NCBI GenBank assembly: GCA_041653015.1
Contig: JBAZGG010000006.1
Span: 574-64,573 of the forward strand
Direction of reading: 5' to 3'
Length of the DNA: 64,000 bases
Origin: Bacilli bacterium
Lineage (GTDB): Bacteria > Bacillota_I > Bacilli_A > RFN20 > CAG-826
Below are positions 2,823 through 64,000 of the stretch, piece after piece. The position numbers were made by a program, and so were the translations under genes. Under the pieces are notes generated by a model. The model saw only the letters and a list, made by a program, of their open reading frames with translations, was not told the DNA's origin and did no database searches. Numbering within the stretch: the first letter of the stretch is position 1; each line of letters starts with the position of its first letter.

Positions 2823-3755
2823 ATGTTAGAAACAATTATGGAAGAAATTCTCGTCTCAATTTTAACAGCTACCTTCAATCGCGCTCATCTCTTAAGAGAA
2901 ACGTTAACTTCTGTTCAGAATCAAAGCTATCGGAATATCGAATATATCATCCTTGATGATGAATCGACTGACAATACGAAAGAAGTGGTGGAAATTTTCG
3001 CGAAAAGTGTTCCTTTCCCTGTCCGCTATATCTATCACAAAAAATGCTATAAACATGGAGCGATGAATATTCTTTTTGCTGAAGCGAGAGGAAGATATGC
3101 GGTCATGGTGGATGACGACGATACGCTATTGCCAGACGCCATTAAAGACTTAGTGTCAATTTTTAAGTCGCTGCCGAATAAGAATGACTATGCTTCAGTG
3201 GTGGGTCGCGCCACGATTAATACCACTGGTGAGATGGAAGGTGAGCTATACCCCGATGATATCAATGAGAAGCCTTGGAAACGCTCTTTAAAAATGGCGA
3301 GAAAAATTTCTGGTGATAAGCTTTCGCTGATGAACCTCGATATATATAAAAATTATTGCATACCCACTCCCGAGGGAGTTAGTTTTGTCACCGAATCTGT
3401 TCTGTGGAATGAAGTGCTATCGCAGTATCGCGAATACTATACGAATATCGTCGTTCTCAACTGCACGAGGCACGCAGGCTATCATTTGAGCGCGCCGACA
3501 AAGAATTACCAATATTTTTTGAACTGGTATTTCTATTCTTTGTACATGCTCAACAACAAAGAAAAATATCCTCTGTTTAAAATAGATCGCTCTTTTCAAC
3601 GTTTGAATTATGCGGCATTTACTTGTAGAGTAAAAAAAGAGGACAAGGAAAAGTTTGGTGAACTGAAATATAAAAGCGATAGATTTTTAATCGCTTTGTT
3701 GATGCCGATCATGTTCTTTGTTCAATTAATAAAATATGGAAAACGCCAAGATTAA
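2823..3755 (+). CDS. Family 2 glycosyltransferase
   Basis: GT2 N-terminal fold motifs: ILTATFNRAHLL, YIILDDESTDNT, and the acidic DXD-like VMVDDDD. Confidence 0.7.
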   Translation: MLETIMEEILVSILTATFNRAHLLRETLTSVQNQSYRNIEYIILDDESTDNTKEVVEIFAKSVPFPVRYIYHKKCYKHGAMNILFAEARGRYAVMVDDDDTLLPDAIKDLVSIFKSLPNKNDYASVVGRATINTTGEMEGELYPDDINEKPWKRSLKMARKISGDKLSLMNLDIYKNYCIPTPEGVSFVTESVLWNEVLSQYREYYTNIVVLNCTRHAGYHLSAPTKNYQYFLNWYFYSLYMLNNKEKYPLFKIDRSFQRLNYAAFTCRVKKEDKEKFGELKYKSDRFLIALLMPIMFFVQLIKYGKRQD

Positions 3756-4872
3756 AGTTTTATATATTATTCCATCACTAAATTTAGGTGGCATGGAAAC
3801 TTTTGCTGTCAATCTGTTTAAAGCCATCGATAAGAATCGTTTTGAGATTCATTTTTTGCTCAATACCTATGGTTCGAAAGACTACTACTTGGATGAGGTG
3901 ACTAAATTAGGAGGAATCGTTCACAAGACCGATAAGGATATGATATCGAACAAATTTAGGCGCATTAATAAGTTTCAGAAAGACATCATTAAAATTATCG
4001 AAACTGAAAAGATTGATGTCGTTCATATCCACACCTGCTACTCACTCCTTTACATAGCTGCAAAAGCTGCGAAAAAGGCCGGATGCAAAACAATTATTAT
4101 CCATTCGCATTCGACGAGCGCAAATCAGGAGCGTTTTCTGGCAAAAGTGTTCAGATATCGCGCCAGAAAATACGCGACTAATTATTTCGCTTGTGGCCTC
4201 GAAGCGGGCAATTGGCTATTTGGCAAGAAATTCTTGTTCTATAAGCAATCAAAAATCATACCAAATGGCTTCGATGTGAAAAGTTATAAATTCTCGCGAG
4301 ATCAACAAGTTGCTCAAAGAGCAAAATATGGTATCTCTGAGAGTGATTTTGTCATCGGTATGGTCTCTCGTCTAGCACGCGTAAAGAATCATATCTTTAT
4401 GCTAAATGTTTTTAATGCAATCAAGGATAGAAAGCATCTCAAACTAGTGATTGTCGGCGATGGTCCTGAAAAAGAAAATATTCAAGCATTTATCAACGAG
4501 CACAATCTCGTTTCACAAGTTAAACTATTAGGGCTTAAGAGCGATGTTTCATCAATTCTCAATATGTTTGATCTCTATGTTCTGCCTTCATTATATGAAG
4601 GTATTCCTACATCCGCTTTAGAGGCTCAGGCCAATGGTCTTCCCTGTATCATAAGCGATAGGGTGGACGCTCATTCCAAACTCCTCGATGATGCTTGTTT
4701 CCTTCCGATTGATTTCGGTACGGATGAATGGGTTAAGCAGATCGATATCATTAGGCATAGCCCCAAAGGAATTAATATCCGTCAAGAGAACAACCAAGAA
4801 ATAATCGACAAAGGCTATGATATGGTTGATGTCGCTAAGCAAATTGAAGAAGTTTATTCTATTAACAAATAG
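3736..4872 (+). CDS. GT4 (GT1-family) glycosyltransferase
   Basis: C-terminal EX7E-type motif EGIPTSALEAQANGLPCIISD, typical of retaining GT-B glycosyltransferases. Overlaps the upstream GT2 by 20 nt, so the two are an operon. Confidence 0.75.
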   Translation: MENAKIKVLYIIPSLNLGGMETFAVNLFKAIDKNRFEIHFLLNTYGSKDYYLDEVTKLGGIVHKTDKDMISNKFRRINKFQKDIIKIIETEKIDVVHIHTCYSLLYIAAKAAKKAGCKTIIIHSHSTSANQERFLAKVFRYRARKYATNYFACGLEAGNWLFGKKFLFYKQSKIIPNGFDVKSYKFSRDQQVAQRAKYGISESDFVIGMVSRLARVKNHIFMLNVFNAIKDRKHLKLVIVGDGPEKENIQAFINEHNLVSQVKLLGLKSDVSSILNMFDLYVLPSLYEGIPTSALEAQANGLPCIISDRVDAHSKLLDDACFLPIDFGTDEWVKQIDIIRHSPKGINIRQENNQEIIDKGYDMVDVAKQIEEVYSINK

Positions 4873-62164: not shown

Positions 62165-62239
62165 GCCTACTTAGCTCAGTGGTAGAGCAATCGGCTGTTA
62201 ACCGATTGGTCGGGGGTTCGAGCCCCTCAGTAGGCGCCA
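62165..62239 (+). tRNA. tRNA-Asn(GUU)
   Basis: Acceptor GCCTACT/AGTAGGC, anticodon loop CTGTTAA (GTT), T-arm GGGGTTCGAGCCCC, CCA. Confidence 0.85.
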
Positions 62240-62245
62240 TTTTTT

Positions 62246-62322
62246 GGCCCGTTGGAGAAGCGACTTAACTCACATGCCTTTCACGCATGCATTCATGGGT
62301 TTGAATCCCGTACGGGTCACCA
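62246..62322 (+). tRNA. tRNA-Glu(UUC)
   Basis: Acceptor GGCCCGT/ACGGGTC, anticodon stem CATGC/GCATG with loop CTTTCAC (TTC), CCA. Confidence 0.75.
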
Positions 62323-62370
62323 CATTAACGAATCAGATCGCTCAAAAGGCGGTCTTTTTTCTTTTAAACT

Positions 62371-62403
62371 TTGGTTCACTTTTGGTTCACTTTTGGTTCA
62401 CTT
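62371..62403. repeat. Three tandem copies of an 11-bp unit, TTGGTTCACTT
   Basis: Read directly: ttggttcactt ttggttcactt ttggttcactt. Lies between tRNA-Glu and the AlbA_2 gene start. Confidence 0.8.
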
Positions 62404-62435
62404 TGAGATATCATATTTATGAATCGAGGTGTCCA

Positions 62436-63860
62436 CTTGTGAAACCTATAACCGAAGAACAACTGCGTGAATTTCTAAGAATGCCACACGAAACTGAATG
62501 GCTAGAGTTTAAAACCGATTGGTTTCAAAGCAATCAACTTGGAGAATATATTTCCGCTATTTCGAATTCCGCTTCAATGAATGGAAAGAAAGAAGGCTTC
62601 ATGATATGGGGGGTCGATAACGATAGTCACGATATCGTAGGAACAGAATTTGATTTCCGAGTTGATGTAAACAAAAACGAGCCACTTGAGCATTTTCTGG
62701 CTCGACAGCTATCACCGAGCATTGCTTTTCGCTTTGAAGAAACTGCGGTGGAGAATAAAAGAATAGTCATACTTAGAATCCCAGCAGCCATTAAAGTTCC
62801 AACATCATATGAAAAAGAGAGATGGCTGAGAATTGGATCTAGTAAAGTCAATCTCTCCAAATATCCAGAAAGAGAAGCGAATTTTTGGGAGGTACTAAAA
62901 CAAGGGCTTCCGACAATGGCCAACACTCCGTCAGAGTATCAAAATCTAACTTTCAACAAACTGTTTTCTTATTGCGACAATAAAGGACATCCACTAAACA
63001 AGGATACTTATAAAGATAATCTCCACCTTTTGACTGATGATGGACAGCATAACTTAGTTGCCAAGTTGCTTGCAGATAATGGTCATGTAAGCATAAAGGC
63101 AGGCCTTTTCAGAGGAACATCAAAAGCCGATACTCTCTATAGCGTCAAAGAATTTGGCAATACTTGCTTATTCATTTCTGCAGATTCGATTCTTGAATAT
63201 GGCGACATAATCAATATTTTGCAGGCGGATGAGGTGCATCGGGTTGCGGGAAGGAAAGAAATTCCACTATTTGATTCATCAGCGTATCGCGAAGCCGTTC
63301 TAAATGCGCTGATTCATAATAAGTGGGTTTCTGGTGATGCCCCAATGTTTGAGTTTTTCTCAGATCGAATCGAGATTAGGTCGTTTGGACCAATGCCGCC
63401 TAATCAGACATCTTCTGGTTTCTTCCGTGGGAATTCAAAACCTGTAAATAAAGAGTTGTCAGAAGCTTTTTCAACTCTTGGAATTAGTGATAGATTGGGA
63501 AGAGGCGTTCCTAAAATTGTCCATGCCTATGGGGAACAAGCTTTCTCGTTTGAAGAAGACAGTATTCTTGTTACGATTCCGTTTTCTGTTTTAGAAGACA
63601 AACAAGATAATATAAATGAGTTTGATGAACGATTAGAACTCAAAATGGATGAACTAAAATTGAACCAAAGCCAAAAAATAATCATTAAATCTATGTTTGA
63701 GAATCGCAATGTATCAATTTTTGGACTCATGGAAAAAACAGGATTAGGGAAAACCGGAGTCATCAAGAGCATCAAAATATTAAAGGAAAAGGGTTTGGTA
63801 ATTAGGACAGGAACTGCAAGAGTCGGCTATTGGTCCGTCAAAATTCAAGTGAACCAATAG
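62436..63860 (+). CDS. AlbA_2 (Schlafen-like, divergent AAA-4) domain putative DNA-binding protein with a C-terminal wHTH
   Basis: N-terminal AlbA_2 consensus (EEQLREFLRMPHETEWLEFKTDW ... ISAISNSASMNGKKEGFMIWGVDNDSHDIVG). C-terminal HTH-like KSMFENRNVSIFGLMEKTGLGKTGVIKSIKILKEKGLV. The track ORF starts inside the tRNA. The start is placed at TTG/GTG around 62436 after RBS GAGGTG. Confidence 0.6.
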   Translation, partial: LVKPITEEQLREFLRMPHETEWLEFKTDWFQSNQLGEYISAISNSASMNGKKEGFMIWGVDNDSHDIVGTEFDFRVDVNKNEPLEHFLARQLSPSIAFRFEETAVENKRIVILRIPAAIKVPTSYEKERWLRIGSSKVNLSKYPEREANFWEVLKQGLPTMANTPSEYQNLTFNKLFSYCDNKGHPLNKDTYKDNLHLLTDDGQHNLVAKLLADNGHVSIKAGLFRGTSKADTLYSVKEFGNTCLFISADSILEYGDIINILQADEVHRVAGRKEIPLFDSSAYREAVLNALIHNKWVSGDAPMFEFFSDRIEIRSFGPMPPNQTSSGFFRGNSKPVNKELSEAFSTLGISDRLGRGVPKIVHAYGEQAFSFEEDSILVTIPFSVLEDKQDNINEFDERLELKMDELKLNQSQKIIIKSMFENRNVSIFGLMEKTGLGKTGVIKSIKILKEKGLVIRTGTARVGYWSVKIQVNQ

Positions 63861-63881
63861 TGAACCAAAAGTGAGCCAATA
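63849..63881. repeat. Three tandem 11-bp units GTGAACCAATA / GTGAACCAAAA / GTGAGCCAATA, inverted relative to 62371-62403
   Basis: Reverse complement of TTGGTTCAC is GTGAACCAA. The first unit overlaps the last codons and the stop of the AlbA_2 gene. Confidence 0.8.
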
Positions 63882-64000
63882 GTGCCTAATCACCGATTCA
63901 GACCAAATGATGTGTCTTTCGGGCTTTGTTAAATGTTTTGCTGGCGCTGCGTAATCAGATTATGCCTGTAAATGATTTCCATTTATTTTTGAGAAACCTC

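Follow-up and report, generated by a model that had tools for sequence, protein, structure and literature searches.

Toward the end of a 64,000-nt stretch of the genome of a Bacilli bacterium (GenBank assembly GCA_041653015.1, contig JBAZGG010000006.1, positions 574 to 64,573; hereafter, the window, at its full length), the genes for tRNA-Asn and tRNA-Glu are immediately followed by a gene that encodes a Schlafen (Slfn/AlbA_2) protein with a C-terminal winged helix-turn-helix (wHTH) domain and is bracketed by two arrays of an 11-bp repeat (Table 1). The upstream array overlaps the predicted promoter of the gene, and the downstream array, in the opposite orientation, overlaps its stop codon. 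This layout had been noticed in a preliminary description made from the sequence alone, which offered two interpretations, namely, that the arrays are binding sites for the encoded protein or that they are the terminal inverted repeats of a minimal mobile cassette inserted at the tRNA pair. The layout itself is confirmed in each of its parts by Tandem Repeats Finder, Pfam, AlphaFold2, Foldseek and ARAGORN. Comparison with database contigs, labeled here L001 to L110, among which the Logan contig L001 reaches 7 kb past the window end (and so yields a 71-kb contig), suggests that the arrays are the predicted operators of the protein encoded between them.

The window protein combines three domains. 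Pfam recognizes SLFN_AlbA_2 at residues 18-139 (E 1.9e-17) and HATPase_c_4 at residues 299-367 (E 4.8e-11), together with a weak match to HTH_11 that is below the cut-off of that family. In an AlphaFold2 model built on 28 homologs (mean predicted local distance difference test score, pLDDT, 82.7), the C-terminal domain at residues 392-467 consists of three helices and a beta-hairpin, and Foldseek matches this domain to the winged-helix proteins MarR, SlyA, NolR and ST1889; the predicted recognition helix spans K438-E450 (KTGVIKSIKILKE). At the N-terminus, the structural matches are SLFN13 (N-domain), SLFN11, SLFN5 and the tRNase domain of SAMD9, and over the whole chain the best match is the structure 3LMM (E about 5e-19). 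In an alignment of the 28 homologs, E18 and K25 do not vary, and E23 hardly does. All three features of the HisKinase-HTH (helix-turn-helix) architecture of prokaryotic Schlafens (pSlfn) are present, that is, the Slfn/AlbA_2 domain, the catalytic motif, which has been defined as Ex4(E/D)xK (PMC13056530), and a HisK-like ATPase domain followed by an HTH. As judged from its domains, the window protein is a member of this pSlfn class, with a predicted nuclease activity and a predicted role in defence. A known defence-system model for the gene was rejected given that PADLOC produced weak partial matches only (PDC-S50, 1.4e-6; Csa3, 3.6e-4).

The two arrays have the same period of 11 bp, with 100% match among the units of the upstream array and 88% match among the reverse-complement units of the downstream array (Tandem Repeats Finder). 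Together, they form an inverted repeat of 33 nt, with 94% complementarity and 1443 nt between the arms. The 64-kb window contains 8 matches to TTGGTTCACTT with at most one mismatch, against 1.38 expected and a value of 8 that was reached in none of 100 shuffled sequences; six of these eight matches are the units of the two arrays. The downstream array sets in within the final codons of the gene (VNQ*), in the sequence ...caa GTG AAC CAA TAG, exactly as the preliminary description had it, and the upstream array contains the predicted -35 hexamer and adjoins the TATCAT box.

Only three database proteins are more than 58% identical to the window protein. In the closest of these, encoded in L019 (69% identity), three copies of TCGGTCTACT lie upstream of a TATGCTATCAT box, which includes TATCAT as in the window, and units containing AGTAGACTGA overlap the stop codon. 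At 8 of 11 bases, the unit of L019 (AAGTAGACCGA) is identical to that of the window (AAGTGAACCAA). The upstream and stop-codon arrays agree with each other within the window locus and within L019, and differ between the two loci; the conservation of the layout despite the divergence of the unit argues for selection. A frameshift in a stretch of seven G (L019:590-597) splits the L019 gene, which points to either a sequencing error or a pseudogene. Arrays located at the stop codon or just past it are present in all 4 members of the window clade and in 0 of about 80 more distant homologs.

These more distant homologs, a sample of 80 metagenomic and 5 viral loci encoding proteins with about 50% identity to the window protein, carry units of their own at the promoter. 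A simple tandem scan detects an array with a 10-12-bp period within 250 nt upstream of the gene in 22 of 84 loci. The units are 10-12 bp long and locus-specific, as exemplified by GTGGGTGATAAA, GTGGGGGATAAA, GTGGTAGATAAA and GTTGGGAATAAA from different loci, and have a common frame, GTG-N5-(T)AAA, which the window unit GTGAACCAAAA fits minus one base. An inverted-repeat scan identifies 42 distinct loci with a long palindrome that consists of 12-bp units, a spacer and units in the opposite orientation. The spacer contains a TATAAT-like hexamer in 34 of the 42 loci, and a TG at -15/-14 in 28, as illustrated by the palindrome of L023 (aaatttaatacccactttattacccaca TGTGATATAATGCG tgtgggtaataaagtgggtattaaaatt). 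Many of the palindromes thus have an extended -10 box at their center. The window and L019 retain the left arm of this arrangement, with three units adjoining the TATCAT box, and the right arm only as a relic.

The relatives also carry copies of their units within the gene, in the codons of the linker that precedes the winged helix, about 210-270 nt before the stop. These copies are in the plus orientation, spaced by 12 or 24 nt, and encode (V/L)G(D/N)K repeats. Counted along the gene, 9-mers shared with the upstream 250 nt peak at -240..-210 nt from the stop, where they reach about 0.10 on the same strand and 0.08 inverted, over a background of mostly 0.001-0.005; at least one such 9-mer is common to the upstream region and the linker in 55 of 81 loci. 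In L053, two arm units that differ from each other reappear in the linker in the same order. The glycine codon of the linker tracks the non-coding upstream unit, with GGT in both in 13 loci, GGG in both in 7, and discordance between GGT and GGG in 3 (Fisher p = 0.001, uncorrected for phylogeny). In the window, two degenerate units occupy the position homologous to these linker arrays, and their equivalence to the linker arrays appears weak because the second unit also encodes conserved L-N residues.

The units also appear to be linked to the protein through the winged helix itself. One position of the predicted recognition helix partitions with the core of the unit: all 15 loci with aspartate at this position have GG[T/C]N, all 13 with glutamine have GGGG, G[T/C]AG or GGGT, and both loci with tyrosine have AG[G/C]A, in a sample in which phylogeny is not separated from recognition. 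In the window clade, this position is occupied by a hydrophobic residue (I, M, V or L), and the units are non-canonical. This partition appears supportive, not decisive. The units accompany the gene in unrelated contexts, including type I restriction-modification (R-M) loci, the vicinity of phage tail genes and sites outside tRNA genes.

Some observations on the same family are of separate interest. In the viral contigs L100-L104, a Schlafen-HisK-wHTH homolog (gene at about 3001-4340) resides among genes for the phage tail, 88 nt ahead of the tape measure gene. A TGTGTTATAAT box at this locus is surrounded by a palindrome of TTGGGAATAAA units that is specific to the homolog, which resembles a self-contained moron. 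In L091, L094 and L098, the C-terminal winged helix of the relatives is of another type (PF21247); the same linker contains 7-residue peptide repeats (TEIPPDR, ENTPDER) in these relatives, and no upstream DNA repeat matching them was seen in the three loci. Many database entries of 60-146 aa are fragments of the window protein family, truncated where the linker carries the repeats, whether through a scaffold gap, a contig end or decay (L107:2961-2970, L108, L109, L110); this pattern suggests assembly breaks caused by the repeats of the linker and promoter. A stand-alone short wHTH protein initiated from a methionine of the linker was considered and rejected: among 185 short homologs, four places were inspected, of which L107 proved to be a scaffold gap, L108 and L109 proved to be contig ends, and L110 contained a decayed gene.

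From the anatomy of the locus, the domain make-up of the protein, the locus-specific units across the family and the match between the arrays of the same locus, we infer that the arrays are probably the cognate DNA sites of the C-terminal winged helix of the protein encoded between them. The case for operators is made by the relatives, which carry their own, different units at matching places. Of the two earlier interpretations, that of binding arrays gains support of a comparative kind, from the homologs with units both at the promoter position and in the gene and from the within-locus agreement of the arrays in the window and in L019. Given that the upstream array lies over the predicted -35 region and adjoins the predicted -10 box, occupancy of its three units should repress transcription, which would amount to negative autoregulation, a sensible mode of control for a nuclease that is probably toxic. 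At the stop codon, the three units in inverted orientation would provide a second cluster of the same specificity, which could raise the local occupancy by looping across the 1.4-kb gene or could act as a roadblock for the polymerase at the 3' end.

Several points weigh against this reading. The support for it consists of co-occurrence and covariation, and both can arise in part from common descent. When a shared unit core is predicted in a pairwise logistic model, the identity of the N-terminal region performs no worse than that of the wHTH, and this attempt to separate the covariation of wHTH and unit from phylogeny was abandoned because the two were not separable. The plus-oriented promoter-proximal arm of most relatives is missing in the window, where only a 6/11 relic, ATGAATCGAGG, is found to the right of the -10 box. 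The predicted promoter is a consensus match at 9 of 12 positions, and such matches are no commoner here than in shuffled sequence. The other two close relatives, L017 and L018 (59-60% identity), have arrays after the stop codon only and none at the promoter, so that a model of promoter operators does not account for them. In L017, three copies of TGAGCATGTAAA begin at +25 from the stop (L017:5420-5456); in L018 (2340-2563), there are several pairs of units ending with TGTAAAT, for example, TGCACCTTAAAT/TGCACCATAAAAT, as well as two copies of TGATCCTGTAAA, and these units surround a TATTATAT box at the contig end that may be the promoter of the following gene. Finally, the role of the stop-codon array, be it looping, a roadblock or another one, is a guess.

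An extension of the operator interpretation, which we regard as doubtful, is that in the large HisKinase-HTH class the wHTH goes beyond the role of a housekeeping autorepressor and tethers the nuclease to the arrays of its own locus (the promoter palindrome, the linker DNA and, in the window clade, the stop codon), so that occupancy would be part of a silencing switch until infection or DNA damage releases or re-targets the nuclease. If this were the case, the operator copy within the coding sequence would be a conserved, selected feature of a defence switch.

The complementarity of the arrays also invites an explanation at the RNA level, whereby both arrays would be included in a read-through transcript of the tRNA operon and pair into a duplex of about 35 bp that encloses the open reading frame (ORF), as a processing or stability signal. 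One difference between the arms would be accommodated as a G-U pair. However, a terminator separates the tRNA genes from the upstream array, and the predicted promoter is located downstream of this array, so that the mRNA of the gene itself would have no 5' arm. Furthermore, tandem units are not needed for complementarity, the linker copies of the relatives, being in the same orientation, cannot pair with the plus-oriented arm of the promoter, and no Rfam family matches. A known RNA family in the flanks was accordingly rejected, the tRNA being the only match. We consider this explanation highly improbable.

Table 1. Features of the Schlafen locus (coordinates refer to the window unless a contig is named)
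Feature	Position	Strand	Basis and remarks
tRNA-Asn (GTT)	62165..62239	+	ARAGORN
tRNA-Glu (TTC)	62246..62322	+	ARAGORN; its 3' half forms the left-hand member of the direct repeat bounding the inserted segment
Direct repeat, left copy (tRNA-Glu 3' half, spacer, terminator)	62290..62361	+	blastn and alignment
Terminator-like hairpin and T-run after tRNA-Glu	62335..62365	+	hairpin 62335-62355, stem AGATCGC / GCGGTCT; stem present again at L001:1820-1850
Upstream array	62370..62404	-	3.2 copies of TTTGGTTCACT; minus-strand units read GTGAACCAAAA; spans the predicted -35 region and stops 4 nt short of the -10 box
Predicted promoter	62386..62414	+	TTCACT, spacer of 17 nt, TATCAT; -10 box 62409-62414; placed also by homology with the palindromes around the -10 box of relatives
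Ribosome-binding site GAGGTG	62427..62432	+	6 nt ahead of the GTG start codon; read from the sequence
Schlafen gene, 473 aa	62439..63860	+	likely start GTG 62439; stop 63858-63860; Slfn/AlbA_2, HisK-like ATPase (HATPase_c_4) and wHTH
Codons E18-T-E-W-L-E23-F-K25, Schlafen catalytic motif Ex4ExK	62490..62513	+	sequence and homolog alignment
Linker codons, residues 384-394, between the ATPase-like domain and the wHTH	63588..63620	+	AlphaFold2 pLDDT below 50
C-terminal winged helix-turn-helix codons, residues 392-467	63612..63839	+	AlphaFold2 model; Foldseek matches
Two degenerate units, ATGAACTAAAA and TTGAACCAAAG	63649..63670	+	each with 2 mismatches, at a distance of 11 nt; relatives have their linker arrays at the homologous place
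Terminal array	63847..63884	+	3.4 copies of AGTGAACCAAT (63848-63884 in Tandem Repeats Finder); from codons V471-N472-Q473, TAG stop included
Conserved arm X (about 80 nt), start	63969..64000	+	L001:1698-1775; precedes the right repeat copy; also closes the relB-fic segment of L105
Direct repeat, right copy	L001:1775-1845		window-equivalent 64046-64116, past the window end; blastn and alignment

The other of the earlier interpretations concerned mobility, and here the comparison with a related genome, L105, in which the MFS permease is 83% identical, is informative. About 1.7 kb containing the Schlafen gene is absent from L105, where a relB-fic pair directly follows the terminator of tRNA-Glu and there is no Schlafen gene. 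In blastn comparisons, L105:5-93 corresponds to L001:1-89 at 94% identity, L105:47-427 to L001:1800-2175 at 75%, and L105:1200-1344 to L001:1698-1841 at 75%; L105 also contains an internal direct repeat (46-91 vs 1301-1344). In an alignment of four sequences, the right copy of the direct repeat aligns with the 3' half of tRNA-Glu and the terminator, with a mean column identity of 69% and with the hairpin stem kept. These alignments place the gene and its arrays in what appears to be a small inserted segment at the 3' end of tRNA-Glu, with the tRNA 3' half directly repeated at its borders. The proposed insertion at the tRNA pair is borne out insofar as L105 represents a site lacking the segment, but the bounding repeat consists of the tRNA-Glu 3' half and the terminator rather than the 11-bp arrays.

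The relB-fic segment of L105 has the direct repeat and the X arm in common with the window, and contains no TTGGTTCACTT unit even when 2 mismatches are allowed. Just past the window end (L001:1898-2219, compared with L105:148-1166), the window genome retains a broken relB, in the form of two short ORFs, and has lost fic, whereas in L105 the pair is intact at the same tRNA-Glu site. In the simplest model that fits these comparisons, there would be two integrase-less islets with a common repeat core and arm of about 80 nt, one carrying the Schlafen gene and the other one relB-fic, which were stacked in the window genome before relB-fic partly decayed. A GGTTCAC in the right repeat copy (L001:1800-1808) was rejected as a fourth unit; it belongs to the displaced 3' half of tRNA-Glu, of which it is the acceptor end in diverged form, and is also found in L105.

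The possibility that the arrays are the ends of a transposon-like minimal cassette, or else functionless products of replication slippage, has in its favor the inverted copies at both ends of a single gene and the capacity of slippage to create short tandem units. However, no target-site duplication is present beside the arrays, which are flanked by TTTTAAAC on the outer left and CCTAATCA on the outer right; no transposase was found, the Schlafen-wHTH gene being the sole gene between the arrays; and the 71-kb contig contains no further arrays. In addition, the inserted segment is delimited by another repeat, and the layout kept in L019 with a diverged unit argues for selection. The arrays were accordingly rejected as transposon ends, and the cassette delimited by terminal inverted repeats, together with the target-site duplication and the additional copies to be expected of it, did not materialize, the motif matches in other genomes being near chance in number and unrelated in context. 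Either form of this explanation appears scarcely credible.

The location within a tRNA-site islet raises another explanation, namely, that the arrays are arm-type sites of a tyrosine integrase acting in trans, similar to the lambda sites P'1-P'3 and P1/P2, and mark the inner ends of a small integrative element at the 3' end of tRNA-Glu. The geometry is compatible with this explanation: the gene is in the segment absent from L105 and bounded by the direct repeat of the tRNA-Glu 3' half and terminator, the left array is located 9 nt past the left repeat copy and the right array about 160 nt before the right copy, and there are three tandem sites about 11 bp apart, inverted at the two ends. In L019, a tRNA-like 3' end precedes the locus by about 270 nt, and in L015 two TTTTGGTTCAC units are found between the terminator of tRNA-Thr and the stop codon of a tyrosine integrase gene; these two cases keep the explanation alive. 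It is at odds with the relB-fic segment of L105, which has the same repeat core and X arm but no such units, with the stop-codon arrays of L017 and L018, which have no tRNA within reach, and with the location of the upstream array, which occupies the position of the operator arm of about 40 homolog loci outside tRNA sites. Moreover, when three tyrosine integrases were compared with the 71-kb contig by tblastn (E <= 1), no integrase-like ORF was detected, and none was called in L001, so that an integrase in this contig was rejected. Because the relB-fic islet lacks the TTGGTTCACTT unit and L017 and L018 are not at tRNAs, we rank arm-type sites low and consider them unlikely.

Similar repeats do occur in other genomes. 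Scans with a two-unit pattern retrieved 1 viral and 9 genome loci, and a three-unit GGTTCAC pattern retrieved 6 viral loci, with contexts that include integrases, primase/helicase genes, the replication module of a streptococcal prophage and an IS110 ORF. A widespread element defined by TTGGTTCAC was rejected because these contexts are unrelated and the numbers are near chance, as estimated from the pattern lengths and collection sizes; we read the matches as unrelated site arrays. Literature searches for the unit sequences returned chance primer matches only, and no description of these arrays was found.

Some of these arrays deserve a description in their own right. In L002 (3245-3277), a phage contig from IMG/VR with 54% GC, TTTTGGTTCAC occurs three times over the stop codon of a minus-strand ORF of 165 aa (...RLGWVNQK*), with the same VNQ reading as in the window; this ORF has no Pfam match. 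In L003 (2838-2880), L004 (4134-4165) and L007 (12530-12640), 11-bp GGTTCAC arrays consisting of 3-4 copies of GGGTTCACCAA are located at or just past the stop codon of large primase/helicase-like phage ORFs, followed in L007 by inverted copies, and look like origin iterons. In L015 (1976-2161, Candidatus Blautia equi), the stop codon of the 443-aa tyrosine integrase is followed, after 8 nt, by two copies of AAGTGAACCAA, a terminator hairpin and tRNA-Thr, an order that is the geometry of arm-type sites in an attL. Several arrays of TTTGGTTCACG with the variants TTTGGTTGGCG and TTTGCTACCCT are found directly 3' of a 497-aa integrase gene in the viral contigs L005 (1700-2000) and L006 (850-1100). 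In Sphingobacterium (L014:700-1062, L016:3240-3420), a block of about 190 nt that contains two TTGGTTCAC units is conserved between two species; its neighbor is tRNA-Met at one of the two loci and a 418-aa integrase at the other one.

One could also view the window arrays as sites for another host or mobile-element protein, such as iterons or partition sites, with no involvement of the encoded wHTH. This possibility is in keeping with the phage and genome contigs in which 11-bp arrays with a GGTTCAC core lie beside primase/helicase-like genes, replication modules or integrases, and with the identical unit present three times at the stop codon of an unrelated ORF in L002. Those matches, however, were selected by motif, and their number is about that expected by chance (an estimated 4 or so against 9 found, for a 19-base pattern in 596 Gb); a lone match to a 20-mer in the viral collection is likewise unremarkable. 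There is no replication or partition gene near the window arrays, nor a replication-initiator gene beside them, the neighbors being the tRNAs, the acyl carrier protein gene, the relB remnant and the MFS permease. Sites for another protein would leave unexplained why the unit changes with the gene across the family, and we deem this possibility decidedly unlikely.

Among the known systems, the closest frame of reference is the recent census of prokaryotic Schlafens, in which the HisKinase-HTH architecture accounts for 19.2% of 5,930 pSlfn proteins (PMC13056530, Nat Microbiol 2026). Phage defence based on tRNase activity was demonstrated in that work for other pSlfn architectures (Ig-like, DUF262 and HisKinase), HisKinase-HTH not being among those tested (PMC13056530). 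The terms 'repeats' and 'autoregul' are absent from the main text of that article (PMC13056530), which appears not to cover DNA sites or autoregulation for the HisKinase-HTH class. The window protein likewise combines Slfn/AlbA_2, with E18, E23 and K25, a HisK-like ATPase and an HTH, and its relatives are often encoded in type I R-M loci. Its best structural match, 3LMM, which is also the only sequence match in the PDB, is DIP2311 of Corynebacterium diphtheriae, an uncharacterized protein with 14-17% identity. The HisKinase-HTH class comprises about a fifth of the bacterial Schlafens, and is not known to have a trigger, DNA site or mode of regulation. Under the operator interpretation, each gene of this class would gain a predicted DNA site that can be read from its own locus, and the family would provide a large natural set of wHTH-site pairs for studies of recognition.

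The autorepressors of the MarR and ArsR families, whose palindromic operators overlie the promoters of their own genes, are similar in the fold of the C-terminal domain (SlyA, MarR, NolR, ST1889) and in the palindromic disposition of the relatives' units around the -10 box. Unlike in those systems, an arm here comprises several units of 10-12 bp in tandem instead of one half-site, the DNA-binding domain forms the C-terminal end of a nuclease/ATPase protein of 470 aa, and extra operator copies are present in the coding sequence or at the stop codon. The layout is unusual in this respect, with tandem units that flank the -10 box on both sides and further copies in the gene's own linker or at its stop.

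Auxiliary operators and loops have classical precedents in lac O2, which lies inside lacZ, and in the lambda CI protein, which binds at OL and OR, with three sites each, 2.4 kb apart. The window resembles these in that similar sites are grouped into two sets of three, separated by 1.44 kb; the first set is located at the promoter, and the second lies within or at the end of the transcribed region. It differs in that the sites are head-to-tail with an 11-bp period, the distal cluster lies over the stop codon of the regulator's own gene, and looping would be a prediction from the arrangement of the sites.

Integrase-less islets at tRNA genes are also well known, for example, the cis-mobilizable elements bounded by att repeats. 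The window shares with them the direct repeat of the tRNA 3' half, the polymorphism of presence and absence, the differing cargo (Schlafen or relB-fic) and the common arm by the repeat; it departs from them in that the 11-bp arrays are not the bounding repeat and no integrase is found in 71 kb, and its mobility is putative. The window itself would then harbor a predicted regulated gene of the defence type in a variable tRNA-Glu islet, and not a new mobile element. Set against all these systems, autoregulation through cognate operators would be of a known kind, and what would be new is the placement of operator copies in the coding and stop region of the regulator, in an abundant class of Schlafens.

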